This document shows, piece after piece, positions 13,340-26,293 of a stretch of 64,000 nucleotides of DNA. Every line of letters begins with the position of its first letter. Position 1 is the first letter of the stretch. Origin of the DNA: Alphaproteobacteria bacterium (GTDB lineage Bacteria; Pseudomonadota; Alphaproteobacteria; Rickettsiales; UBA8987). The notes beneath the pieces were generated by a model. The model ran no database searches and was not told the origin of the DNA. It saw nothing but the letters and a program-made list of their open reading frames with translations. Both the position numbers and the translations under genes were made by a program. Location: positions 207,868 to 271,867 of the forward strand of contig JAUIFA010000001.1 in NCBI GenBank assembly GCA_030429625.1, read 5' to 3'.

Positions 13340-15805
13340 TTATCTGTTTCTACCAGAATTGCGTTCTGGATCATCCGGAGAATCATTGCCCTTATCCTTG
13401 CCAGAATCAGGCTCTTTCGGTGGACGGGGGGCATTTGGGTCGAAGTCTTTGCTGTCGAAAGCCGACCTTAGCCCCTCTACCGCACTGCGTCCGGCTTCGC
13501 CTTCCATGGCCTTTTTTAGATCCTCTCTGTCGCCTCGTGCATCGGCAGCGGTTTGACGGTCATGCGTTTCTTTTTCACGTACTGTTTCTGCCAAGCGCTC
13601 AAAGGCCGATTTGGCCTCTGGCGGCAAATCATCAATTCGAGGTGGCAAAGATTCTACCCCAATTTGCTCAACAAGCTGCTGCATAAATTCTTCTTTCAGG
13701 CCAGTTTTTCCAAGCTTCTTGGCAACGTTCTTAAACGCTTGGTAATACAACTCACTTGTTGGAAAATTATCAATAGCTTCAAGTCTAGCTAAAAATTCTG
13801 GCTTTTTAAGATAGTTGTCTACATTATGGATGGTAGTGATGTCTTTAGCCTCATTTCTCAAGGAAACCATCATTTTTCCAGTATCACGGTCAAAGAAAAA
13901 TGTTTCTTCCGGTTTGCTGCTGAGTAAACTGACGACCGCATTACTTGCTAAATTAGCCGCAGGGATTTCATCAGAAATAACAGAACCATCCACTTTGTTC
14001 TTTATTTGTGCCATGGTCGCACCAGAGACCGCTCTTTGTATCCGATCACTTATAGAATCCATCTGTTGCAGGGTCAGATCAACCTCTTCCCCGTCTTTTT
14101 GTGCGCTGAGCACCATATGACCACTACCGCTTCTCTCTATTTTTAGTTCGATGTCAAGGTTACGTGAGCAGAAATCACTAATTTGTTCGTCAGTAATCCC
14201 ACGTAATTTTCTCTGTGCTTCTTCTAAGTTTCTTATGGTAATAAATTCAGCCATGGAGAGCGTGGATTCCCTGTTTGCGGATAAAATTACCTCATCAATT
14301 TTAACCTTTTGCCCTTTGCCGATAATGTCTAAGAACTCATCAGGGGAAATCCCGGATTGTTCAAACATATTTTTTACGGTTTTGCGAGAATTTTCTAATT
14401 CAACATCACGGCTTTTACCCTCAAGAAGTTCCCTCGGCAACAGGGCTTGGAAAAGCCGTCCCATATCTTCTAAATTTGTAAGATCATATTCAAAACCCCT
14501 AACTTTACCAGTTTCAGGATCTCTGTGTTTTACAGTCACATTCCCAAGATCATCCATAGTTTTGATTTCGCGACCCAACAATTTACCGAGAGAGCCTGCG
14601 GCAATAAATCGTTGATCGTGTTGATTAAAACCATCAGGGTACAAAAGATCAATATTGTTGACAATTTTGTCACCGTAATGGTCTATGTTATCGCTTATCA
14701 GGCGTTGAATTCGCTTGTCCATCTTTTTAACAACCGGAACGCTAAATTCACTAAGCATCTCATCCCTGAAAATATTTTTTGGAGATTTGAGTTCTTGTCC
14801 TACAACTTTGCCTTCTTCATTAAAAATAGGTTGTGTCATATTTTGATCGGTAGATGTGCTCATCAGACCATCAATCATCCCCTGCATGAGTGCGATTCCA
14901 ACGTCACCCCCTATTTCATGCACCACAAAACTAAAAAGCCCACCACCAACACCTAGTATGTTTTTGCCCGAGCGCAACAGAAATTCGGCACTTTCTCCAG
15001 GAAATTTCCACAAGGCACACTTGGCGGCATTATGGAACCATCGTGTACCATCATGAACTTCTCCGTCATAGGTCTTATTTTCTATCTGTCTCCGCTTTAG
15101 TTCTAATGCGGCGATCTCTTCTCTGTAGGCAATTGCTTTGTCTGGATCCGTTTCTGTTTTAACTCTTTTAACAAGGGCTTCTATCTTACCCTCTGTCCAT
15201 TTCTTTGTGCCGTGGTGAAGTTCGCCCTTCCGCTCAGTAATTTCTTCCCTACGTTGCCGAAGCTCTTCAATTTTCTCTCGTAGCTGTGCGGTTTCGGGGT
15301 CCTCCCCACCCTGAATATTACGTTTTTCCTGCCTCTTTTCTCTCCGTTTCAAAAGTCTTTCTGATTTCTTTAGCTCTTTTTTTACGCCAAGTAGCTTTGT
15401 CTCTAAAGCCTTTTTTTCGTCTCGATCTCTCAGATTATCTTCGTAGAAACTTGAAAAAACATGTTTTTTGTTTGGATTTGGATCATCAATGCGGCGAACG
15501 GTTTCTCTTCCCGCATCAATAACGCTGTGAACCTCGTTTCTAAACGCAGAGTTTGTATCCCCAATTTTATCACAAACCTGCCGGAGGACACGGGCATTGG
15601 CTGCCCTAAACTCATAGTCTTGTGGAGACAGTAAATTATTCTCTTTTGGAGTTTTTAACCGGCGTGTAGGATCATGGGGTTCATTATATGCTCTGTCCGC
15701 TTCATCCAGTGCTCGTAATTCCATCTGTTCCAGCGTATCATATATATTACCTGGATCGTCAGTTGCGGAAAACGCATCCCTATGTTCTTCCCGTTCATCA
15801 GCCAT
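13340..15805 (-). CDS. Large orphan protein, charged/coiled-coil (candidate secreted effector)
   Basis: 821-aa ORF with no recognised motif; basic tail ERNSGRNR. Confidence 0.75.
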   Translation of the reverse strand: MADEREEHRDAFSATDDPGNIYDTLEQMELRALDEADRAYNEPHDPTRRLKTPKENNLLSPQDYEFRAANARVLRQVCDKIGDTNSAFRNEVHSVIDAGRETVRRIDDPNPNKKHVFSSFYEDNLRDRDEKKALETKLLGVKKELKKSERLLKRREKRQEKRNIQGGEDPETAQLREKIEELRQRREEITERKGELHHGTKKWTEGKIEALVKRVKTETDPDKAIAYREEIAALELKRRQIENKTYDGEVHDGTRWFHNAAKCALWKFPGESAEFLLRSGKNILGVGGGLFSFVVHEIGGDVGIALMQGMIDGLMSTSTDQNMTQPIFNEEGKVVGQELKSPKNIFRDEMLSEFSVPVVKKMDKRIQRLISDNIDHYGDKIVNNIDLLYPDGFNQHDQRFIAAGSLGKLLGREIKTMDDLGNVTVKHRDPETGKVRGFEYDLTNLEDMGRLFQALLPRELLEGKSRDVELENSRKTVKNMFEQSGISPDEFLDIIGKGQKVKIDEVILSANRESTLSMAEFITIRNLEEAQRKLRGITDEQISDFCSRNLDIELKIERSGSGHMVLSAQKDGEEVDLTLQQMDSISDRIQRAVSGATMAQIKNKVDGSVISDEIPAANLASNAVVSLLSSKPEETFFFDRDTGKMMVSLRNEAKDITTIHNVDNYLKKPEFLARLEAIDNFPTSELYYQAFKNVAKKLGKTGLKEEFMQQLVEQIGVESLPPRIDDLPPEAKSAFERLAETVREKETHDRQTAADARGDREDLKKAMEGEAGRSAVEGLRSAFDSKDFDPNAPRPPKEPDSGKDKGNDSPDDPERNSGRNR

Positions 15806-15900: not shown

Positions 15901-16761
15901 TTAGGATTTGTTTTCTAGGGTTTGGCCAAGAATAATTCTGGCTTTTGCCGGTGTGGCAATTTCTCGATGTGTCGTCTCTACGGATTTTATATATTGTAAC
16001 ACAAGATCAGCATTGTTCTTAGCTAAGGATCCGTCTGCAAGAAAGTGATTATTTTCAAAGCCGATACGGGGATTTCCACCGCATTTTGTGACTTTTTGCA
16101 TGATAGAGTTTTCGTATCCTCCGAAGGCACAGACGTGCCAAATAGTCTCCGATAAAAGCAATTCACCGTCAAAACTTTCAAGAAACGGGTCAAGTTGATC
16201 GCTCAGTGCCCAAGTGGATTTATCGTTTATGGAGGCATATTTTTGCCCTAAAACAAACAGAACAGAGACTTTTTTCCCTGGAATTTTACCGTCTTTACGC
16301 AATTTTGCAAAATACCGAACTTCGTCAAGAGAATAGAGAACATATTGGGTAAGAATTCCTTCTGCAAATAAATCGGCAAAGAACGCAAGCGCGGAAGCCT
16401 CATGAGAAGAATCGGGGATAAACTCTCGCAAAGCAACGGAGGCGGCTTCAGGATGCAATTGTGTAATGATCTCCATTTGTTGTTTTGGGGTGTATATTCC
16501 CCCTGATTCGCTGGTGCATTGTATAATCAAATCATCACCGGCAACTTCACGTATGGCACTGATGGTCTGAGAGTATATTTCAGGATCAAGAGTATGTTTT
16601 TGGTTGTCGTCACGCACATGCAAATGCACCATTGCTGCGCCGGCTTTAGCAAACTCTCTTGCCGCATAGGCAATGGATTCTGCTGTTACAGGAATGTTTG
16701 GCAAATCTGCAGTTGTCTTTTTTGCCCCATTTGGTGCAACATCAATAATAATAGGTTCCAT
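15901..16761 (-). CDS. Beta-keto acid cleavage enzyme (BKACE, DUF849/Kce family)
   Basis: IIIDVAPNGA, AGAAMVHLHVRD (Zn ligands), RIGFENN. Confidence 0.9.
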   Translation of the reverse strand: MEPIIIDVAPNGAKKTTADLPNIPVTAESIAYAAREFAKAGAAMVHLHVRDDNQKHTLDPEIYSQTISAIREVAGDDLIIQCTSESGGIYTPKQQMEIITQLHPEAASVALREFIPDSSHEASALAFFADLFAEGILTQYVLYSLDEVRYFAKLRKDGKIPGKKVSVLFVLGQKYASINDKSTWALSDQLDPFLESFDGELLLSETIWHVCAFGGYENSIMQKVTKCGGNPRIGFENNHFLADGSLAKNNADLVLQYIKSVETTHREIATPAKARIILGQTLENKS

Positions 16762-16834
16762 GGATACTAATTTGTGTTATTTTCAACGTGTTTTCACACC
16801 ATAGCACAAATTTAAGCCAATTGGAAAATAATAG

Positions 16835-17449
16835 ATGAACGAATCATTACAGAATTCTTCCCAACTTTTAAAAAAGATTAAACACCATAAGGGAGATAAG
16901 ATCACGGTCGAAGAAATTATGACCATTTTTCGTGAAGGTGGGTTTAGCCTGCTGTTGATTATATTTGCTAGTCCGTTGGCGCTACCCCTGCCAGCGTTGG
17001 GTATCGCCCAGATCATGGCCGTGCCTATTCTGATATTGGCCACACAGTTGACTATGGGGCGACAATCTTTGTGGATGCCACAGAAAATTGCTAAAAAAGA
17101 GATGAACATGCAAAATCTCTGTTCAATTATTGATAAGGCTATCCCATGGCTTGAAAAAATAGAGTATTTTGTCAAACCACGCCTGATATTTTTTAGCTCG
17201 TCAGCAGGTCATCGGGTCATTGGTTTGTTCTGCCTGATTTGTGCCATTTCGGTGGCCGTGCCTATTCCCTTTAGCAATACGGTACCCAGCATGGGAATAG
17301 TACTGATGTCAATTGGTTTGCTTGAAAGAGATGGTTTGGTCATCCTTGCGGGGATGTGTGTCGGATTTATCGGGATATGTCTGACAAGCATTGTAATATT
17401 CTTTGGGGCAGAGGCAATAAGAACCTCCATTGATGCCATTTTTAGTTAG
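16835..17449 (+). CDS. ExoD-family membrane protein
   Basis: [27 protein letters not shown]. Confidence 0.85.
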
Positions 17450-18426
17450 GCCGCTTTGTCTGCTTTTGCCGGTGGGGACATTTCTAGCATTTTATCCAGA
17501 GATAATTTGGCTTTTGCCCGCAATTCTTCGTCCATTTCGATTGAAGGTGAACGGTTGACCATGCATAAATAAAGCTTTTCTAAAGTGTTGAGCTTCATGT
17601 AAGGGCAGTTGTTGCAACTGGTGCAGCCTTCTTCCACCCCCGGAACGGCATAAAATTGACTCTTTGGAGCAAATTTTTTCATTTGATGGAGTATTCCTGG
17701 TTCGGTCAGGACAATAAAATCACCTCCGTCATGGGCAGTGGTATAATCCAGCAATGAGCGGGTAGATCCTATATGATCGGCATATTTTAGCAAAGCCTCA
17801 GGGCATTCTGGATGCGCAATGATTTTTGCCGAGCTGTGTTGGTTGCGCAGTTGAATCAGGGTTTTTTCAGAAAACTGTTCATGCACCACGCATGTCCCGT
17901 CCCAAAGCAGCATGTCTCGTCCAGTCTGTTTGTTGATGTAGTTACCAAGATATTTATCTGGTGCAAAGATAATTTTTTGGTCTTTAGGCAGCTGATCAAT
18001 AATATGTTTGGCGTTGGAAGAGGTAACAATAATGTCCGAAAGTGCCTTAATCTCTGCGGAACAATTGATATAGGTAATGGCAATATGATCGGGATGGGCT
18101 GCACGGAAGGCCTTGAATTTATCAGGTTGGCAAGATTCTTCCAAAGAACATCCGGCATTGAGATCAGGAAGCAGAACCAACCGATTAGGGCTAAGAATTT
18201 TAGCAACTTCAGCCATAAACTTCACCCCGCAAAACACAATTACCTCCGCGTCAGTAGCCGCCGCTCTACGTGAAAGATCAAGCGAGTCACCAATGAAATC
18301 GGCAATGTCCTGCAAGTCTGAATCTTGATAATAATGGGCAAGAATCACCGCGTTCATCTCTTTCTTTAAACGCTTTATTTCTTCTTCAAGATCAAGTGTT
18401 GGATCAATATTATTTTCTGTTAACAT
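17446..18426 (-). CDS. nadA: Quinolinate synthase
   Basis: [32 protein letters not shown]. Confidence 0.95.
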
Positions 18427-18566
18427 CGAGTTTATTTAGTAAATTTTTTGCTGTGTTCTAACCAAGATTTCTATCCCTGTCCAGCGTCTTTTGTTCATCC
18501 TGCTTGATTTAGACTACAATACTGTATAATTAAGTTAAATTTCTTGAATCTACAGGCGTTGTTTTT

Positions 18567-18659
18567 ATGGACATAGAATTGAAAAAACAAATTCGCTCAT
18601 GGCTGATTATACTCTTAAGTATGGCCATTGCGTTTGGCTTTGGTATGAGCATAAATTAG
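18567..18659 (+). CDS. Putative 30-aa single-pass membrane protein (not in ORF track)
   Basis: MDIELKKQIRSWLIILLSMAIAFGFGMSIN; TATAAT at 18525-18530. Confidence 0.4.
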   Translation: MDIELKKQIRSWLIILLSMAIAFGFGMSIN

Positions 18660-18725
18660 CATATTTTATTTTGCTATTTATGTTAGTTCTGCTATCCTTG
18701 GATTAAGATAATATTAGGTTTTGCG

Positions 18726-19076
18726 ATGAAAAAATTTACAATTCCATGTGATTTCGGCAATCAGAAATCCCCGTTTGATGTCTATATTGGACACCCTAAG
18801 GAGGGCAATCACCCTCTACAGAATCAGGCATCTTGGCTTTCATCGGAACGTGGCGGCACAATTCCTGCCAATGTAATGGAAAGTTTTGCCAATCTTCTCA
18901 AGCTTGCCAGTGAGAATGGGGTGGAATTTGAGGATTTGTGTGTGTATGCATTAGAAGCCGCCCAAAAAGAAAAGAGTAATGAAGTGGCTGCAACCGAAGC
19001 CGAACCTTCTCTGTCCGCACCGACACAATCACAAGAGCCCAATAGTGATGTCCCTTCTGTAGAAAAAGACAGTTAG
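18726..19076 (+). CDS. DUF2610-family protein
   Basis: KKFTIPCDFG...PF.VYIG.P...HPLQ.Q..WL..ERGG.IP pattern recalled from Rickettsiales proteins. Confidence 0.75.
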   Translation: MKKFTIPCDFGNQKSPFDVYIGHPKEGNHPLQNQASWLSSERGGTIPANVMESFANLLKLASENGVEFEDLCVYALEAAQKEKSNEVAATEAEPSLSAPTQSQEPNSDVPSVEKDS

Positions 19077-19080
19077 CAAA

Positions 19081-19524
19081 TTAATAATTAATTTTCCACC
19101 GTGCGGCCTTGTCGGGTTGAATGGTAAAATCAATAGTGTATTCTTGATTTTTTCCACAAGATTCCAAAAGCCAGCTTTCACTCCAATTTCGTGTGATGTT
19201 CCATGCTCGATTGTCTGATAAGTCTGGCGTCATAGGAGAGTAAATTTTAACGTTCTTGAGGGCATAATTTTCTTTTACAAAGTCACAGTCGGGATAACGT
19301 GTGCTGATCTCATTGATAATGGAATAAAACACATCGGCTTTTGGCAATAGCCCCTCAGATTTATTATACGCATCGGCCAATTTGGAGATTACATCATGGT
19401 AGACTCGGTCACTGTCTTCTTTTGGAGGGATGTGGGCATTTTCATTGTTCCAGACAAGAGAACCACATCCCGCAATGGTAAACAAGGCGGCAATAGACAA
19501 ATAATATTTTAAATGACGAAGCAT
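19081..19524 (-). CDS. Hypothetical lipoprotein
   Basis: Signal peptide with lipobox IAGC; starts 3 bp after the aminomutase stop. Confidence 0.7.
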   Translation of the reverse strand: MLRHLKYYLSIAALFTIAGCGSLVWNNENAHIPPKEDSDRVYHDVISKLADAYNKSEGLLPKADVFYSIINEISTRYPDCDFVKENYALKNVKIYSPMTPDLSDNRAWNITRNWSESWLLESCGKNQEYTIDFTIQPDKAARWKINY

Positions 19525-19527
19525 CTT

Positions 19528-21048
19528 CTACACGTTTTGGAGTATTTTCTCCATAGTATCAGATTCTGTCAAAGGAGCAAATACTGATTTTAAGAATGTT
19601 CCCATAGGGGAAAAACGTGCGTCCCCATCTTTCCGCCCATCGTATAAAATACGATCTTCATAACCCGAAATCCAAAGAGCTTCAGGGTTGCGTTTGGCAA
19701 TAACAATTTGCCCTTGGCTGGTGGACGATTCACCCGTGCGGTGGGCTTTAAAAATAATAATACCATCTTTAAAAATAGCATTAGCCAATTTAAGTGCTTC
19801 TTCAGGAAGGTCTGGTGCCAGAGCAGTCACATCAAACCCATCCATCACGGAAACTACTTCCAGCTTGCCAAACTCGGTTGACATAACAAAGCGAGATTTT
19901 TCAATCCCAGACAAACCATGTTGTGATTCGGTGTGGATTCTCCATGCTTTTTCCACTGGCACGGCAAAGGTTTTATGGCCTTCAATTTCGCGGCATTGAA
20001 AATAATAGTGATTGTTGATGCCTAGACGTTTTAGCTCCACATGCAAACGGCGTAAATCTTGTGAATTGTCGTTGACACTATCAATGATCGGCGCTTGATT
20101 TTCTAAAGTGATGTAGTTACGGCTGCGAAGGCGACCCACGGCCTCTTCTACCTGAGGAATTCTTGTGTAATGATAACCTTTGGTGCGCACATATTCTTTG
20201 TTTTTATCGCGTTGAAGAATTTCATCTGCGTGCGAGAAGTGCGTCATAAACGCTAAGTTTACATTCGGGTGTAACTCATGGAAAAGATCGATCATGTCAA
20301 AGAAATTATCGTCAAAACGCATAGGATAAAAGGATAATTCTTTTGTCCCAATACGAATAGTACGAATACCCGCACCAGCCAACCCATCAAGATAGCCAAA
20401 TAAGTTGCGGTTGGAAAGTACCATCGGATCGCCGCCAGAAAGCAATGCCTCACGAATTGGGAATTTTTTTACATCCCCTTCAATAAAGGCACGATCCACA
20501 TCCTCAATGGTCATACCCTCTTTGACTTTGGCGTTGTAGTCTTTAACATAATTGACAATTTGACTGATGCTGCCAATATCCTTGTCGGTTTTGCTTGTTA
20601 GGAAGTCGGAACGATAGCAATAGCGACACCACGAACTGCACGTACGCACCACGTATAACAGGATTAATTCATACTTATGTAATAGGCCGGGAACAGGGCT
20701 GTATTTTAGCTGATTAGAAGGATCAGCCTCCCCGCTGAGATCGTCCATCTCTTCCGGACGGGCTTTGATAAGGTTGGTGATGGCATGGCTTTTTGCCGCC
20801 AGCTCCATATAATATTTTGTCGCACGCGGGGGCAAACGATCAGAAAGACCAGCCGCCTGTAAATCCTGCAACTCTTTTTCCGAATAGATTTGAACGCCTC
20901 CATTTGCAACATGGCGTCTATAGCCCTCAATATCATGGGCAATATATTTATGAAATTTAGACTCTTTAATTTGTGAATTTAGATTATCCAATCTCGGATT
21001 GCGTTCACGTTTGTTATTTCTTTTTGGGCGCCTGTTTGTAGAGGTCAT
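19528..21048 (-). CDS. KamA-family radical SAM 2,3-aminomutase (probably not lysine-specific)
   Basis: CSSWCRYC, LLSGGDPM, IRIGTK, YYFQCR, FVMSTEFGK (PLP Lys); RBS before ATG 21048. Confidence 0.88.
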   Translation of the reverse strand: MTSTNRRPKRNNKRERNPRLDNLNSQIKESKFHKYIAHDIEGYRRHVANGGVQIYSEKELQDLQAAGLSDRLPPRATKYYMELAAKSHAITNLIKARPEEMDDLSGEADPSNQLKYSPVPGLLHKYELILLYVVRTCSSWCRYCYRSDFLTSKTDKDIGSISQIVNYVKDYNAKVKEGMTIEDVDRAFIEGDVKKFPIREALLSGGDPMVLSNRNLFGYLDGLAGAGIRTIRIGTKELSFYPMRFDDNFFDMIDLFHELHPNVNLAFMTHFSHADEILQRDKNKEYVRTKGYHYTRIPQVEEAVGRLRSRNYITLENQAPIIDSVNDNSQDLRRLHVELKRLGINNHYYFQCREIEGHKTFAVPVEKAWRIHTESQHGLSGIEKSRFVMSTEFGKLEVVSVMDGFDVTALAPDLPEEALKLANAIFKDGIIIFKAHRTGESSTSQGQIVIAKRNPEALWISGYEDRILYDGRKDGDARFSPMGTFLKSVFAPLTESDTMEKILQNV

Positions 21049-21092
21049 ACAACACCTTTGAAAAATCATTACAAATATATTTTCTGTAAAAA

Positions 21093-21230
21093 TTGTGCGC
21101 TGCACAACAAAAATATCCAGCAAAAATCGCTGGATACCAATGTATTTTACAGATGTGCATTATATCTGTTTATTCCACAAAAGCAAGAATAAAAAACGCA
21201 GCAAATCCGCACTCATGTTGCATTGCAGCA
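21093..21230. promoter_or_regulatory. Two PhaR/AniA-type boxes
   Basis: TGCGCTGCACAA (21096-21107, within the palindrome TTGTGC-GCT-GCACAA) and TGCATTGCAGCA (21219-21230). Confidence 0.6.
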
Positions 21231-21295
21231 AATCGAGGTATATTTATTTTTATGTAGATAAAACTATCTTTCGTATAACGAGCTGTTAACAAGGT

Positions 21296-22618
21296 TTATA
21301 GAGATTTTTCTAAGGCGGCCGAAAACTTATTTACGATCTCATCAATGTGCTTATCTTCCATGATAAATGGCGGAGCAAACATCACATGTGCTCCTTGAAC
21401 TCCATCAATTGTTCCGCCCATAGGATAGCACATTAACCCTTCTGCCATGGCTGCTGCTTTGATTGTGGTAGGTAATTTCTTGGCTGGATCGAAAGGTTTT
21501 TTACTGGCCTTGTCTTCTACCAATTCTAAACCGATAAACAAACCACGCCCACGAATGTCACCGATGTTGGGATGTTGGCCAAAAGCATCTTCAAAGGCGG
21601 CATGCAATTTGGCACCTTTATTTTTCACATTTTCCAGCAATCCGTCACGCTGGATAATTTGTTGTACCTTCAGTGCTGTGGCGCAGGCAATCGCATGACC
21701 GATATAGGTGTGACCGTGTTGGAAAAACCCACTACCTTTTTGAATGGTTTCAAAGATATTTTTGGAGACCAACATTGCGCCAATGGGTTGATATCCCGCA
21801 CCAAGCCCCTTGGCAATGGTCATCAGGTCAGGAGCAACGCCATCTTCTTCACAAGCATACATATAGCCGGTTCTGCCCATGCCGCACATCACTTCGTCAA
21901 GAATCATCAACACATCATATTTTGTACAGATTTCACGAATGCGTTTTAAATAACCTTCAACGGCCGGAACGCAGCCGAGCGTTGCTCCCACCACCGGTTC
22001 ACAAATAAAGGCAGCCACTTTTTCTGCACCGATCTCATTGATTTTATCCTCTAACTCGTTGGCTACTCTTTGGCCAAAATCGAATTGCGATTCGCCGTCT
22101 TTTTTCAGGCGATATTCGTAACAAGGTGAAATATGATGCATGTTCACCAACATCGGTTTAAATTGGGCACGGCGCCATTCATTGCCACCGGCAGACAGTG
22201 CGCCCAACGTGTTGCCGTGATAGCTTTGTTTGCGGGCGATGATGACTGACTTTTCGTTTTTGCCTTGTTCTAAGAAATATTGCCTAGCAATTTTTAAAGA
22301 GGCTTCCACTGCTTCCGAACCACCGGAAAAGAAATAGACCCGATCCAATCCTTCTGGCGCGCGTTCAATCAAAAAGTCAGCCAGTTCTTCCATCGGCTCA
22401 TTGGTAAAAAATCCGGTATGAGCAAAGGCCAATGTATCAATCTGTTTCTTCATCGCTTCACGCACTTCTTCATTGCTGTGACCAAGGCAGGAAACCGCAG
22501 CCCCGCAACTTCCATCAAAATAACGTTTATTGTTGCTGTCAATGAGATAGCAACCTTCTCCTGATATAGCGGTAGGGTAGTTGGTTAGAGTATGACGATG
22601 AAAAACATGGTTTGGCAT
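21296..22618 (-). CDS. Class III PLP aminotransferase (omega/beta-amino acid type)
   Basis: DGSCGAAVSCLGH, SGGSEA, SYHGNT, DEVMCGMGRTG, AKGLGAGY, HGHTY. Confidence 0.92.
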   Translation of the reverse strand: MPNHVFHRHTLTNYPTAISGEGCYLIDSNNKRYFDGSCGAAVSCLGHSNEEVREAMKKQIDTLAFAHTGFFTNEPMEELADFLIERAPEGLDRVYFFSGGSEAVEASLKIARQYFLEQGKNEKSVIIARKQSYHGNTLGALSAGGNEWRRAQFKPMLVNMHHISPCYEYRLKKDGESQFDFGQRVANELEDKINEIGAEKVAAFICEPVVGATLGCVPAVEGYLKRIREICTKYDVLMILDEVMCGMGRTGYMYACEEDGVAPDLMTIAKGLGAGYQPIGAMLVSKNIFETIQKGSGFFQHGHTYIGHAIACATALKVQQIIQRDGLLENVKNKGAKLHAAFEDAFGQHPNIGDIRGRGLFIGLELVEDKASKKPFDPAKKLPTTIKAAAMAEGLMCYPMGGTIDGVQGAHVMFAPPFIMEDKHIDEIVNKFSAALEKSL

Positions 22619-23105: not shown

Positions 23106-24641
23106 ATGAACAATCAACAACAAGTGCTAACAATAGATCAGGCAATGGCCAAGGCGGAGGAGTCTAAGAAAGAAAAAAAGCCAATGGTGGCATTACAGAT
23201 CTATAATGATATCCTCAACAAATATCCGCATAACCTTAATGCTCTGTTTAGTCGAGGCATGTTATTAGAAGAAAATAAAGAATATAAGGCCGCGCTTAAA
23301 GATTATAATACATTGATAGATTTGTCTTACGATGTTCATATTGTGTATTCTAAAATGGGTGATTGTTACAGCAAATTAATGGACAATGACATAGCCGTTG
23401 AATGCTATATCAAATCAATGCAATCCAAACCTGATTATGTGAACACTTACGCTCCGGCGGTCAGCTTTATGGAGCGGGTCGGGAGATTAAAGGATGCAGA
23501 AAAACTTGTGGATAATGCGCTGAAGCTTGTTCCCAAAAGCTCTGATCTGCATTTTCTAAAAGGCAAAATTTATCTCAAAGGAAAGGATTATAAAAGAGCA
23601 GAAAAACATTATGCCAAAGCCGTAAATTTTGGGTTATTTGAACGCAGTGCACATATTGTTCTGGCCGAATATTCTTCGGTCAAAGAGAAATTAGGCAAAT
23701 ATGATGAAGCAATGGGGCTGGCGGTTCAGGCACAGAAGTTTGCTTCACAGACAAAAGATGCCTTAAACGCACATACGTCGCCTTTACAAAATACAAAAAT
23801 CATTGAACAATCAATGGGGTGGTTTAGTAAAAAGGACATTAAGGGCTGGGAAAAGGCAGATTATACGGGGAAAAAGGCACCGGTTTTTTTGGTGGGCTTT
23901 CCCCGTTCTGGTACCACATTGATGGAGCAGATACTCTTTGCTCACCATAATTTGACAGTGACTGATGAAGTGCAGGTTCTGCCAGCAAAGATGGTATATA
24001 TTAATAAAGTGTTTGGACGTGAGATCCAGTATCCACAGGATTACGCTACCATCACCCATGAAGAAATTCAAAAATGGCGTGATGAGTATTTTGCCGCCAT
24101 GCAACGCACGTTGCCACACATTGATCACAGCTTACGTATTGTGGATAAAAACCCGATGTCCTTCATTTACATGGGAGCGATCAAGCGCTTTTTCCCTGAA
24201 TCACCGATGTTGATGATGATCCGTGATCCGCGCGATGTGTGTTTAAGCTGTTTCTTCCAAACCTTTGCTCCTAATTCAGACACAGTACATTTCTATGATC
24301 TAAAAGAAACGGCTACCTATTATGCTAAGGCGATGGATCTTTATTTTAAGTTCCGTGACACGATGTCGATGGACATATTGGAAGTCAAATACGAGGATAT
24401 GATTGATGATTTTGAGAACCATGCGCGTAACATCATAAAATTTATTGGTGAAGAATGGGACGATAATGTATTGACCTATTACGAACAAAAAAACAGTCGC
24501 TTTATTAAAACACCAAGTTATGAAGCAGTCAAACAGCCGGTGAACAATAAAGCAGTGGGTCGTTGGCAGAAATATGAAAAATATTTCAAAGAGATTACCC
24601 CTATTCTTCAGCCATATTTAAAAGAATTTGGATATGATTGA
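23106..24641 (+). CDS. TPR + PAPS-dependent sulfotransferase
   Basis: TPRs; VGFPRSGTTL, VDKNP, RDPRDVCLS. Confidence 0.9.
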   Translation: MNNQQQVLTIDQAMAKAEESKKEKKPMVALQIYNDILNKYPHNLNALFSRGMLLEENKEYKAALKDYNTLIDLSYDVHIVYSKMGDCYSKLMDNDIAVECYIKSMQSKPDYVNTYAPAVSFMERVGRLKDAEKLVDNALKLVPKSSDLHFLKGKIYLKGKDYKRAEKHYAKAVNFGLFERSAHIVLAEYSSVKEKLGKYDEAMGLAVQAQKFASQTKDALNAHTSPLQNTKIIEQSMGWFSKKDIKGWEKADYTGKKAPVFLVGFPRSGTTLMEQILFAHHNLTVTDEVQVLPAKMVYINKVFGREIQYPQDYATITHEEIQKWRDEYFAAMQRTLPHIDHSLRIVDKNPMSFIYMGAIKRFFPESPMLMMIRDPRDVCLSCFFQTFAPNSDTVHFYDLKETATYYAKAMDLYFKFRDTMSMDILEVKYEDMIDDFENHARNIIKFIGEEWDDNVLTYYEQKNSRFIKTPSYEAVKQPVNNKAVGRWQKYEKYFKEITPILQPYLKEFGYD

Positions 24642-24644
24642 TCG

Positions 24645-25103
24645 ATGTATAAAGTACTGATAACCCTTTTAATATTTTTATTTCCAGCCTATGTGTGGGC
24701 GTGTGAAGTCACACCAGAGGAAGAAAGCTTTGATGCAGTGGTACATAAAGCAGATGTGATTTTTTATGGTAAGCCAATTATCATCGGCAAGCGTTATCCT
24801 GAAGAGCTGGCCAGCAAAGACCTTGTTGAAATCACAGGCAAATTCTTAAACGCGCCTTACGAAGTCCAATTTGAAGTGTTAAAAGTTTGGAAAGGTGAAA
24901 TAGCAAGAGATTTCTATCTGATGGACAAAGACGGAGAATGTGGTCATAAGCTGCCAGAAAAGTTAGAGCAGCCAATGCTTGTTTTTGCTAAGTTTGATAA
25001 GGAAGGCCTTAAGATAATGGACATTGGCTCTAAAGAATTTAACGCATTAAGTCAGGCACAGAGAATCGGGTTGCTCGAGTCGCCTATTTGGCAGATGAAT
25101 TAG
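24645..25103 (+). CDS. Exported TIMP/NTR-like protein
   Basis: Signal peptide then mature Cys1; ADVIFYGK, FEVLKVWKG, ECG, MLVFA. Confidence 0.55.
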   Translation: MYKVLITLLIFLFPAYVWACEVTPEEESFDAVVHKADVIFYGKPIIIGKRYPEELASKDLVEITGKFLNAPYEVQFEVLKVWKGEIARDFYLMDKDGECGHKLPEKLEQPMLVFAKFDKEGLKIMDIGSKEFNALSQAQRIGLLESPIWQMN

Positions 25104-26293
25104 CCTCTTCCCCTGTCTTGCTCGAAAAGATGGGTAATTGCTTCGGCTATATTGCGGTCTATTCTTTCTTTTTCGGGAGCAAAACTAACCCGTGCTTCGG
25201 AAGCAATTTTAAAATAAGACAGTACGTCGCCAAGAATTGTTTTAATTGTGGCAAGAGAGCGTATGTCTTCATTCACGCTGATGCGTGCAGCAAATCCTTG
25301 GGCGCCAAGATCAATAGATTTTTTCTCAGCCATTTCATCAAAAGCGTTTGTAACGGATTTCTCTAACGCATTGTAATACGCAATATCGTCGTTAAATCCG
25401 CACTCATTTTTTTTAATCTGAGTTAATTTTTTTGCATAGGCTGCCAGATGGTGCATGTTTGTTACAAACTCACGGGCACTGTCTCCCAGAGTAGAGGCGG
25501 CCAGATCACACAGACCATCCTTAAGTTCATCAATACTCTTCATGGCTACAGCAATTTTGGTAAAACGAGAGCCATAAAATGCGCTCAGCCCGTTAGTAAC
25601 AATTTTCGCCGGCTCACCAAAAAACTCCCCAAGCTTCACTTCTTCAACCTGTGGACGTTGGTGATAGTGATGTACGTTGTCTTGCACGGAAGATAATGCC
25701 ATCAAATCTTTAGAAATTTTACGTACTGTCGGTGATTGTTGTTTGGCTGCAAAGCGTGTCGCACGTTCTTCTTCCAATGCCTCTAAGCTGTCAAATATTC
25801 TATTGGCATCTTCCGGGTGAATAAGTTTTCGTTCCTTTTTAATGGCTTTAATGCAGGAATCACACATTCTGTTAAACAGTGATACAGCATATTGTGCTCC
25901 GTGCGTGCGAGTTACCTCCGTCTGGAATATGGTGTCAGGGGTAACCCTTTTTTTTCCTCCTTTGACTTCTTCCAGCCTGTGTTGGCTGGCTTCAAACCGT
26001 TGCCGATTTTCATCCACATATCGGGCATTACTATTGATATTGCCCTCAGCGTATTTCATCAAACGTCTTTGGAAGCTTTCTATGAGCGCTATTTGCTCTG
26101 CATAATAATTCTCTAATGTCAGCTTTTTACCGTCCAGAGGTTGGTAGTTTCTCACAGGATAGAGCGGGTCAGGTTTTCCTGCATGGCACAGTTTATAGTC
26201 TTTACCGCCCATGGTAATAATATCCCCGGCACGACCATTATGCGTGGGGGTAAAATCATCTTGTATTTTGTCTAAAAAAGAGGACATGACCAA
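25100..26293 (-). CDS. Orphan helical protein (candidate secreted effector)
   Basis: 397-aa ORF; tail EQDRGRG. Confidence 0.7.
   Translation of the reverse strand: MVMSSFLDKIQDDFTPTHNGRAGDIITMGGKDYKLCHAGKPDPLYPVRNYQPLDGKKLTLENYYAEQIALIESFQRRLMKYAEGNINSNARYVDENRQRFEASQHRLEEVKGGKKRVTPDTIFQTEVTRTHGAQYAVSLFNRMCDSCIKAIKKERKLIHPEDANRIFDSLEALEEERATRFAAKQQSPTVRKISKDLMALSSVQDNVHHYHQRPQVEEVKLGEFFGEPAKIVTNGLSAFYGSRFTKIAVAMKSIDELKDGLCDLAASTLGDSAREFVTNMHHLAAYAKKLTQIKKNECGFNDDIAYYNALEKSVTNAFDEMAEKKSIDLGAQGFAARISVNEDIRSLATIKTILGDVLSYFKIASEARVSFAPEKERIDRNIAEAITHLFEQDRGRG

Follow-up and report, generated by a model that had tools for sequence, protein, structure and literature searches.

Within 7 kb of a 64,000-nucleotide window from a Rickettsiales-like genome lie three co-oriented genes, encoding a radical SAM/PLP protein of the KamA family, a class-III aminotransferase and a BKACE, and they raise the question of whether they form one pathway, on which substrate and for what purpose. 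The first-pass annotation of this DNA had proposed that they take L-glutamate through beta-glutamate and 3-oxoglutarate to malonyl-CoA and acetoacetate, so that acetyl-CoA carboxylase (ACC) would not be needed. The underlying sequence reading was accurate: the three genes all map to the minus strand at the given coordinates, the nadA, exoD-like and DUF2610 genes interleaved with them are matched by Pfam and NCBIfam scores (Table 1), and the motifs FQCR and FVMS of the radical SAM protein and NGAK of the BKACE were read at their positions. The radical SAM ORF extends from 19528 to 21123, and the Met at 21048 is its likely start. Two features of the locus count against a single pathway: genes on the opposite strand separate the BKACE from the other two members of the trio, and the aminotransferase is set off from the KamA-like gene by a terminator-like hairpin, of a kind not found above its chance count. 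The lipoprotein-like ORF gave no match in Pfam or NCBIfam, nor by tblastn against 45 related loci, and is therefore considered to be outside the conserved part of the system. The ExoD gene is also close to the trio in loci L002, L004, L005 and L010, which looks like synteny.

Table 1. Genes of the three-gene locus and their neighbours, in positions of the window.
Feature	Position	Strand	Score or assignment
BKACE, 286 aa	15901..16761	-	PF05853, 202.8 bits
ExoD-family protein, interleaved, probably unrelated	16835..17449	+	PF06055, 185.7 bits
NadA quinolinate synthase, interleaved housekeeping gene	17446..18426	-	PF02445, 393 bits; NF006878, 451.6 (cut-off 294)
DUF2610 protein, interleaved	18726..19076	+	PF11020, 126 bits
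Lipoprotein-like ORF, 147 aa	19081..19524	-	Follows the radical SAM gene at a distance of 4 bp
KamA-family radical SAM/PLP protein, divergent, 506 aa	19528..21048	-	Candidate acidic-amino-acid 2,3-aminomutase
Class-III (omega-type) aminotransferase, 440 aa	21296..22618	-	Candidate beta-amino acid transaminase

Judged from its sequence, the KamA-like protein is a distant offshoot of the KamA family. Its best PDB sequence match was lysine 2,3-aminomutase 2A5H (E 1.2e-14), which was also the top Foldseek match of its AF2 model (mean pLDDT 85.8; E 7e-18, TM 0.50/0.62); the matches ranked after it, also radical SAM enzymes, had E values no better than 2e-5. The KamA-family model TIGR00238 gave 112.5 bits, below its cut-off of 199.2, and the cut-offs for lysine 2,3-aminomutase and EpmB (TIGR03820, 89 vs. 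525; TIGR03821, 90 vs. 369) and for glutamate 2,3-aminomutase (TIGR04368, 83.2 bits vs. an equivalog cut-off of 650) were missed as well. Only 46 representatives among 1.84 billion reached E ≤ 1e-30. The CxxxCxxC cluster motif is present, with CSSWCRYC aligning to that of other KamA proteins, and FQCR (in YFQCRE) aligns with YQCD of 2A5H. The second Asp site, FVVD in lysine aminomutase, was compared by means of lysine-aminomutase-like representatives, which read YVI-D-APGGGGK where the KamA-like protein (RFVMSTEFGK) has Ser390; the Lys395 of STEFGK aligns with the lysine of their GGGGK, in a loop two residues shorter. Both Asp residues of lysine aminomutase are thus replaced, by Arg353 and Ser390, in 120/120 members. 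Given that these two residues, together with the three Cys of CSSWCRYC, the GGDP motif and the PLP Lys395, were invariant in all 120 homologues, the motifs are not due to chance, and the active-site swap noticed in this one protein is a trait of the whole family. The 506-aa protein has no Cys after Cys352 and so lacks the C-terminal Cys-rich zinc site of lysine aminomutase 2A5H. It must be noted that the Arg/Ser pair is also found in a large uncharacterised KamA clade, so the pair alone does not specify glutamate.

The BKACE exceeded the gathering threshold of its Pfam family (24.8), covering profile positions 1-273 of 274, and stayed under every NCBIfam equivalog cut-off, among them those of Kce (127.3 vs. 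382) and of 3-oxoadipate:acetyl-CoA acetyltransferase (NF053568, 106.6 vs. 350). Against Kce 2Y7D, its VHLHVRDD pairs with IHLHIRED and its GFENN with GFEDN, and the shared HLH and GFE(N/D)N were kept across 120 homologues; His-x-His and Glu are the Zn-binding residues in Kce. The alignment with 2Y7D bore out the substitution of NGAK for TGAE, by which Lys14 stands in place of Kce Glu14. The subfamily motif is APNGA[R/K][K/R]T, read as APNGAKKT in the window, and the site was occupied by NGAR in 94, NGAK in 13 and TGAR in five of the 120 homologues, while the divergent BKACE of genome G060 has Tyr at position 14 instead of a basic residue. The window's genome encodes another BKACE (G000:C8:128714-129520), which passes NF053568 at 389.7 vs. 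350, and since this paralogue is a 3-oxoadipate-type equivalog, that substrate already has an enzyme in the genome. The aminotransferase scored above both PF00202 (338.6 bits vs. 30.5) and NF005685, of the PRK07483 group (750.1 vs. 485), and the solved structures closest to it are transaminases of the omega, GABA and beta-alanine types.

The distribution of the genes was followed in 61 genomes of the order, the window's own included, which are related and hence dependent samples. The KamA-like gene was found in 20 of them and orthologues of the BKACE and of the aminotransferase in 15 each; all three were present in 13 genomes over nine GTDB families, and none in 40. The KamA-like gene accompanied the BKACE in 14 of 15 genomes, vs. 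6 of the 46 BKACE-negative ones, and the aminotransferase was likewise present in 14 of those 15. The trio lies within 7 kb in six of the 13 genomes (G000, G023, G028, G036, G060, and G064), and in four more two of the three genes are adjacent or at most 5 kb apart. Co-occurrence elsewhere, the test that the first-pass annotation had set for itself, was therefore passed. Gene order and orientation vary between genomes, and in G060 the cluster is kept despite deeply divergent copies (41, 38, and 51% identity) and adjoins a 3-hydroxybutyrate dehydrogenase gene (TIGR01963, 336 vs. 307). Five genomes of the order (G017, G021, G035, G043, and G050) carry the KamA-like gene alone. The three linked genes probably form one short pathway in this small genome.

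Beyond the order, among 300 other Alphaproteobacteria genomes, the BKACE subfamily was present in 30, of which 25 had the aminotransferase nearby, at <100 bp in 22 and at 1-1.3 kb in three. The KamA-like gene was found in none of the 300, and any gene of the KamA family was absent from the five module carriers examined. The aminotransferase and the BKACE are thus an old, tightly linked two-gene module, the core of the system, for which the aminomutase is dispensable. Aminotransferase orthologues, in 83/300 genomes, were far commoner than the BKACE, which indicates that this family has other roles too. In 20 loci a recurrent gene order was observed, consisting of RpiR, aminotransferase, BKACE, TAXI binding protein, fused TRAP membrane unit and Usp, with the binding protein and the membrane unit each present in 16. 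The binding protein of locus L066 matched 8S4J, that is VcGluP of the Vibrio cholerae VcGluPQM system, with 426 bits. VcGluP is described as binding L-glutamate with a Kd of 65 nM, and the other characterised TAXI ligands as glutamate/glutamine and alpha-ketoglutarate; VcGluP itself reportedly does not bind adipate, aspartate, lysine or alpha-ketoglutarate, and beta-glutamate is absent from the text of that paper (PMC11574862). The module-linked proteins keep Y45, S75, Q93, and E125 of VcGluP but depart from it at water-mediating positions (S40G; D157 replaced by Q, A, S or T), and the Vibrio genes are described with other genomic partners, argR and mdh (PMC11574862). This operon linkage to a VcGluP-like importer in free-living Alphaproteobacteria suggests, as an independent pointer, a glutamate-like substrate; given these site differences and the L-glutamate ligand of VcGluP, it could also reflect the use of L-glutamate as amino donor, or synteny.

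Co-occurrence, the link between module and importer, and the family-wide Arg/Ser and BKACE Arg/Lys residues make a glutamate route plausible, and we tentatively favour it as the best explanation. The KamA-like enzyme would perform a C2-to-C3 amino shift on an acidic alpha-amino acid, most likely converting L-glutamate to beta-glutamate (3-aminoglutarate); the aminotransferase would turn this beta-amino acid into its beta-keto acid, 3-oxoglutarate; and the BKACE, by the chemistry of its family, would cleave it with acetyl-CoA to malonyl-CoA and acetoacetate. The latter could then pass to 3-oxoacid CoA-transferase and 3-hydroxybutyrate dehydrogenase, a ScoA/B-type CoA transferase and BdhA being encoded elsewhere in the window's genome. 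Where the aminomutase is missing, the most likely task of the module is to degrade a beta-amino dicarboxylate taken up by the importer, while in the window's order the KamA-like gene would provide an intracellular source of the beta-amino acid. The role is likely catabolism or turnover of glutamate and beta-glutamate, and not the replacement of ACC. In this regard, the first-pass proposal is supported by the clustering of the trio, by the family-wide active-site swaps and, as a new line of evidence, by the glutamate-type importer; its ACC-bypass purpose is not supported, and the substrate itself is what we infer.

The route can be compared with several known systems. Lysine fermentation (KamA, KamDE, Kdd, Kce, Kal) likewise places a radical SAM/PLP 2,3-aminomutase upstream of an acetyl-CoA-using BKACE that yields an acyl-CoA and acetoacetate, and its two enzymes agree in fold and motifs with those described here. 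However, it belongs to a fermenting anaerobe instead of a Rickettsiales-like lineage, its keto acid comes from a dehydrogenase and not a transaminase, and its substrate-charge residues are inverted here in both enzymes. In the aerobic beta-lysine catabolism of Pseudomonas B4, reportedly studied in the Barker laboratory in 1979-81, the beta-amino acid is said to be transaminated to 3-keto-6-acetamidohexanoate, which with acetyl-CoA is said to give an acyl-CoA and acetoacetate. The logic of transaminase plus cleavage would thus be shared, whereas the B4 substrate is an acetylated basic amino acid; the comparison is one of chemistry and, to our knowledge, that pathway has no link to an aminomutase or a TAXI importer. 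Glutamate 2,3-aminomutase (Eam, TIGR04368; IdnL4) carries out the reaction proposed for the KamA-like protein, L-glutamate to beta-glutamate, and has also lost both lysine-aminomutase Asp residues; Eam reportedly carries Lys and Asn at the two substrate sites (work attributed to Ruzicka and Frey, 2007), where the KamA-like protein has Arg and Ser. The latter exceeds Eam in length by about 100 aa, has insertions as well as extensions at both termini, contains no cysteine after Cys352 and is far from the Eam model. Should glutamate be its substrate, it would represent an independent solution. IdnL4 is described as the glutamate 2,3-aminomutase of incednine biosynthesis (PMC11284099). The fold, Zn-site motifs and predicted pocket of the BKACE, apparently suited to anionic beta-keto acids, resemble those of BKACE group G4, listed for 'negatively charged' substrates (Bastard et al., 2014, via Table 7 of PMC4922564).

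The same three steps might act on another anionic or neutral substrate, for example L-2-aminoadipate, to be converted via 3-aminoadipate and 3-oxoadipate to succinyl-CoA and acetoacetate. The Arg/Ser swap, common to many uncharacterised KamA proteins, argues only for a non-basic, probably anionic side chain, and NCBIfam has an equivalog for BKACE enzymes with 3-oxoadipate as substrate. Nevertheless, the window's BKACE falls far below that model, which the genome's second BKACE passes, and the characterised protein closest to the operon-linked binding protein reportedly does not bind adipate (PMC11574862); we regard this reading as unlikely, while giving it real weight. Equally unlikely in our view is that two separate functions are involved, the KamA-like enzyme making a beta-amino acid as compatible solute, building block or modification and the pair degrading an unrelated import, with ancestry and synteny accounting for their co-occurrence. 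Five of five Maricaulaceae genomes carry a KamA-like gene (about 60% identity) without BKACE or aminotransferase orthologue, with fliI, che and regulators as neighbours; in the 30 class genomes the pair is found with no KamA-like gene; and in L004 and L005 synteny around the trio extends to NadA and ExoD as well. Against this stand the strong association of the KamA-like gene with the BKACE within the order and a linkage that outlasts many rearrangements and, in G060, deep divergence.

Returning to the favoured glutamate route, its purpose was also considered. The first-pass annotation had seen in it a dedicated, ATP- and biotin-free supply of malonyl-CoA in place of ACC, and indeed neither accA nor accD was found above cut-off in the window's genome, the stoichiometry would yield malonyl-CoA, and the acetoacetate could be recycled. 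However, accA was found in none of the 61 order genomes, whether they bear the trio or, as in 40 of them, lack it altogether, and outside the order it was present in 4/5 free-living carriers of the pair and 5/5 Maricaulaceae. Additionally, the window's genome encodes one PccB/PccA-type carboxylase pair, as in the Rickettsia case where PCC is proposed to make malonyl-CoA in lieu of ACC, and a Wolbachia PCC is cited there as complementing an E. coli ACC mutant (PMC5615194). Since PCC is an established alternative source, the trio is unnecessary for that purpose, and replacement of ACC is improbable. Scarcely better are the prospects of the most ambitious version, that the KamA-like clade represents another glutamate 2,3-aminomutase, of independent origin and at work in aerobic-lineage Alphaproteobacteria, forming with the pair the first natural pathway from beta-glutamate to malonyl-CoA; in ACC-less Rickettsiales, this pathway would feed fatty-acid synthesis with glutamate from the host or the environment and would need no ATP, biotin or CO2. 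Finally, a lysine-type identity of the two enzymes, as their source annotations and best solved homologues (lysine aminomutase and Kce) would have it, is very improbable in view of the loss of both lysine-binding Asp in 120/120 members, the Arg/Lys in place of the Kce Glu and the lysine-specific equivalog cut-offs, all widely missed, to which the lack of a KamD (PF09043) match in the whole 1.84-Mb genome adds a weak negative, given that the model had no match in any of 14 control genomes either.

Microbes are known to use beta-glutamate as an osmolyte, and a full-text literature search found no described breakdown route for it. The conversion of glutamate via its beta-isomer to malonyl-CoA and acetoacetate would be an undescribed route. 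3-Oxoglutarate was reportedly among the substrates screened by Bastard et al. in 2014. With this analysis, the more dramatic claim of a replacement of ACC falls away. If the favoured reading is true, about one in ten Alphaproteobacteria (30/300) would carry an importer-transaminase-BKACE operon dedicated to beta-glutamate, a deeply divergent clade of radical SAM aminomutases would gain a function, and the BKACE reaction on 3-oxoglutarate would acquire a physiological role. Homologues in Azospirillum, Paremcibacter and Duganella provide cultured, tractable hosts for this idea.

The three co-oriented genes of the first-pass annotation were present as claimed. They lie on the minus strand and encode a BKACE-family protein, a KamA-like radical SAM protein and a class-III aminotransferase. 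Their coordinates and profile matches are provided in the table, together with other loci of the window and of its 1.84-Mb genome (G000). The motifs cited earlier were also recovered: FQCR and FVMS in the radical SAM protein, with FQCR aligned to the YQCD of lysine 2,3-aminomutase (2A5H), and NGAK in the BKACE, aligned to the TGAE of Kce (2Y7D), with HxH and GFE(N/D)N kept. A small lipoprotein-like ORF beside the radical SAM gene was weighed as a possible additional component but dropped, because it had no match in 45 related loci. Sites resembling promoters (21) and terminators (6) were no more numerous than in shuffled sequence, so that the regulatory scan served just as a weak hint.

Location of the trio and of other features in the window and, where a contig (C) is named, elsewhere in G000
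Feature	Location	Strand	Match or remark
821-aa ORF	13340-15805	-	no Pfam or NCBIfam match
BKACE	15901-16761	-	PF05853, 202.8 bits
ExoD gene	interleaved with trio	+	
NadA gene	interleaved with trio	-	
DUF2610 gene	interleaved with trio	+	
Radical SAM (KamA-like) gene, P0006	ORF 19528-21123	-	probable start Met at 21048, giving 506 aa
Lipoprotein-like ORF	4 bp downstream of radical SAM gene		147 aa
Terminator-like hairpin	21138-21112		between aminotransferase and KamA-like gene
Class-III aminotransferase	21296-22618	-	PF00202, 338.6 bits; NF005685, 750 (cut-off 485)
TPR-repeat protein fused to sulfotransferase domain	23106-24641	+	PF13469, 120 bits; divergent, upstream of aminotransferase
397-aa ORF	25100-26293	-	no Pfam match
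RimK-like ATP-grasp copy	C5:9862-11202		67% identical to the L052 copy; elsewhere on same contig
Family-I CoA transferase	C5:118222-119517		two subunits
Second BKACE	C8:128714-129520		3-oxoadipate:acetyl-CoA acetyltransferase equivalog, 390 (cut-off 350)
TAXI binding protein, TRAP membrane protein, Usp	C8:224466-228541		unlinked to trio
PccB-type carboxyltransferase and biotin carboxylase/carrier fusion (L084)	C10:2275-5856		509 aa (mmdA subfamily, 769 bits) and 676 aa, the fusion immediately after the carboxyltransferase
VirB11 and VirD4 (L086)	C10:217256-220262		pass NCBIfam equivalog models PRK13900 and PRK13897; beside 3-hydroxybutyrate dehydrogenase gene

Judged by its sequence, the radical SAM protein is a very distant member of the KamA family. 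It scored 112.5 bits against TIGR00238 (cut-off 199.2) and missed all the equivalog models widely, namely those for lysine (89 bits against a cut-off of 525), EpmB (90 against 369), arginine (89 against 600) and glutamate (83 against 650). Its own family is nonetheless well conserved: more than 120 homologues, with 59-81% identity, came from 'Rickettsiales' metagenome genomes and from the Maricaulaceae genera Oceanicaulis, Marinicauda, Woodsholea, Maricaulis, Glycocaulis and Alkalicaulis. Among 1.84 billion, the cluster representatives that reached E<=1e-30 numbered only 46. The ESM Atlas clusters were only 'hypothetical protein' and lysine-aminomutase-like. The AlphaFold model (mean pLDDT 85.8) had 2A5H as its top fold match (E 7e-18, TM 0.50/0.62), the next matches being other radical SAM enzymes with E values of 2e-5 and weaker. 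Invariant positions in 120/120 members are the cysteines of the cluster motif, GGDP, Arg353, Ser390 and Lys395 (the PLP lysine position). Features that set the family apart from lysine aminomutase are an N-terminal extension, two insertions, a conserved C-terminal domain and the lack of any cysteine after Cys352.

At the residue level, the Arg/Ser swap speaks for a substrate that is anionic or neutral rather than basic. Glutamate is not singled out by it, since the same pair is found in a large KamA group with proteins of 370-400 aa (archaea, Collinsella and others; YYxFQCRP...SHxxGK), whose representatives are called just 'KamA family radical SAM protein'. Ruzicka and Frey reportedly gave in 2007 a Lys/Asn signature for glutamate 2,3-aminomutase. 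Fourteen KamA-family representatives were scanned in search of a bona fide enzyme of this kind to align, and all scored below the TIGR04368 cut-off. Directly upstream of a 46%-identical KamA-like paralogue in G022 lies a RimK-like ATP-grasp gene with an N-terminal Zn-protease domain (L052:5244-6608); RimK-type enzymes ligate glutamate, and this neighbour is a further, weak hint of that substrate. A class I/II aminotransferase adjoins the KamA-like gene in three loci (L053, L058 and L063, from G006, G021 and G050), two of these lineages being without the class-III aminotransferase and BKACE, and its G000 orthologue had a sub-threshold match to an aspartate transaminase model (NF004769, 579 against a cut-off of 617). 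In-frame TAA stops inside the KamA-like genes of G017 (C46) and G050 (C6) possibly mark decaying copies or assembly errors.

The subfamily of the window's BKACE carries the motif APNGA[R/K][K/R]T, and at the position of the Kce Glu the 120 homologues had mainly NGAR (94), followed by NGAK (13) and TGAR (5). Cultured Azospirillum and Paremcibacter strains are among the bacteria with homologues of this BKACE. 3-Oxoglutarate was reportedly part of the BKACE screen of Bastard in 2014. In the summary of the BKACE family given in Table 7 of PMC4922564, one active-site group is that for negatively charged substrates. The second BKACE of the genome, found among housekeeping genes (L087:4706-5554, with PurN, PurM, class-II DAHP synthase and prephenate dehydratase), passes the 3-oxoadipate equivalog model, against which the window's protein scored 107, and this lowers the odds of 3-oxoadipate as the substrate of the latter. 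By the reaction of its family, the window's BKACE would convert 3-oxoglutarate and acetyl-CoA into malonyl-CoA and acetoacetate. The genome encodes a CoA transferase and a 3-hydroxybutyrate dehydrogenase (TIGR01963, 351 against 307), so the acetoacetate would be usable.

In the 61 genomes of the order, own genome included, which as related genomes are non-independent samples, the KamA-like gene was found in 20 and the BKACE and aminotransferase orthologues in 15 each. All three were present in 13 genomes across 9 GTDB families and none in 40, so that the outcome which the first-pass annotation gave as refuting, a lack of co-occurrence elsewhere, was not seen. Partial sets were seen in G061 (77% complete, without the aminotransferase), G008 (without BKACE) and G045 (85% complete, without the KamA-like gene). 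The patchiness of the KamA-like gene, together with the loss of the lysine-binding Asp, led us to set aside an EpmB-like role in EF-P modification. The whole trio lay inside 7 kb in 6 of the 13 complete carriers, with varying gene orders and orientations, and in 4 further carriers two members were adjacent or at most 5 kb apart. In G060 the cluster was retained, its genes having diverged deeply (identities of 41, 38 and 51%), and it adjoins a gene for 3-hydroxybutyrate dehydrogenase, which acts in acetoacetate metabolism (TIGR01963, 336 against 307). This patchy yet joint distribution, and a linkage persisting through rearrangement, argue for a functional tie of the trio. In L048, L049 and L006 the genes for the KamA-like protein and the aminotransferase flank one for a YdfG-like 3-hydroxy acid dehydrogenase; the two loci scanned scored below the cut-off of 411 (L048, 327 bits; L006, 321 bits). 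A single SDR cluster near the trio was rejected, as two distinct enzymes are involved, 3-hydroxybutyrate dehydrogenase in L050 and the YdfG-like one in L048 and L006. The BKACE genes of G061 (C1) and G057 (C2) contain an in-frame TAA and TAG, respectively, for which decay or assembly error is possible.

Among 300 other Alphaproteobacteria, the window's BKACE subfamily was present in 30, aminotransferase orthologues in 83 and the KamA-like gene in none. Of the 30 genomes with the BKACE, 22 had the aminotransferase less than 100 bp from it, 3 at 1-1.3 kb and 3 elsewhere, and in 2 it was not found. Moreover, none of five pair-carrying genomes (98-100% complete) had a KamA-family gene (TIGR00238, E<=1e-8). 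The aminotransferase-BKACE pair is the core of the system. Twenty loci fetched from free-living Alphaproteobacteria (L064-L083) had the recurrent order RpiR, aminotransferase, BKACE, TAXI binding protein, fused TRAP membrane protein and Usp, with the TAXI and the TRAP component each present in 16 of the 20; our literature search found no description of an RpiR-aminotransferase-BKACE-TAXI operon. In some loci the binding protein is encoded twice in tandem, and the binding site of one copy has diverged. The L066 binding protein matched PDB 8S4J with 426 bits. The protein of this structure, VcGluP from Vibrio cholerae, has a Kd of 65 nM for L-glutamate and binds L-glutamine more weakly; no binding of aspartate, lysine, alpha-ketoglutarate or adipate is reported for it (PMC11574862). 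Most of 11 operon-linked binding proteins, and G000's own copy, retain the direct-contact residues Y45, S75, Q93 and E125 of VcGluP. Other residues stand in place of S40 and of D157, which holds a water. The importer thus adds a second indication that the substrate is glutamate-shaped, one that does not rest on the active sites. Given that pair carriers lack the aminomutase, the simplest substrate of the pair would be an imported beta-amino dicarboxylate, e.g., beta-glutamate.

Several observations speak against a single pathway, and in view of them the aminomutase product may also serve other purposes, such as that of a solute. The KamA-like gene (~60% identity) was found in five Maricaulaceae without orthologues of BKACE or aminotransferase, and alone in five genomes of the order (G017, G021, G035, G043 and G050). 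In addition, opposite-strand genes cut the window's BKACE off from the other two, between which lies a terminator-like hairpin of a kind whose count was not above chance. In Maricaulaceae (L022 and others) the gene is flanked by those for a FliI-type ATPase and for an OmpR-type response regulator, with CheR and CheB encoded nearby. Che genes were also seen within 10 kb in L007, from a 'Rickettsiales' metagenome genome.

That the route replaces acetyl-CoA carboxylase (ACC), the purpose first proposed for it, is very unlikely and receives no support from the distribution of accA, which was found in none of the 61 genomes of the order, with or without the trio, but outside it in 4/5 pair carriers and 5/5 Maricaulaceae. 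In G000, neither accA nor accD was found above cut-off, and one PccB-type carboxyltransferase is encoded beside a biotin carboxylase/carrier fusion. Such a state is known from Rickettsiales: Rickettsia is described as being without ACC, with PCC proposed as malonyl-CoA source, and in work cited there Wolbachia PCC complements an ACC mutant of E. coli (PMC5615194). With genes for the synthesis of purines and aromatic amino acids still present, G000 is less reduced than classical Rickettsia.

The trio is therefore best read, with fair probability, as a generic scheme in which an alpha-amino acid would be converted to a beta-amino acid, then to a beta-keto acid, and finally to an acyl-CoA and acetoacetate. 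The glutamate series ending in malonyl-CoA, to which two independent inferences lead, is the most likely version of the scheme and is proposed tentatively. No natural pathway of such kind was found in the literature searched. The trio is more likely to have a role in catabolism or turnover than in bypassing ACC.
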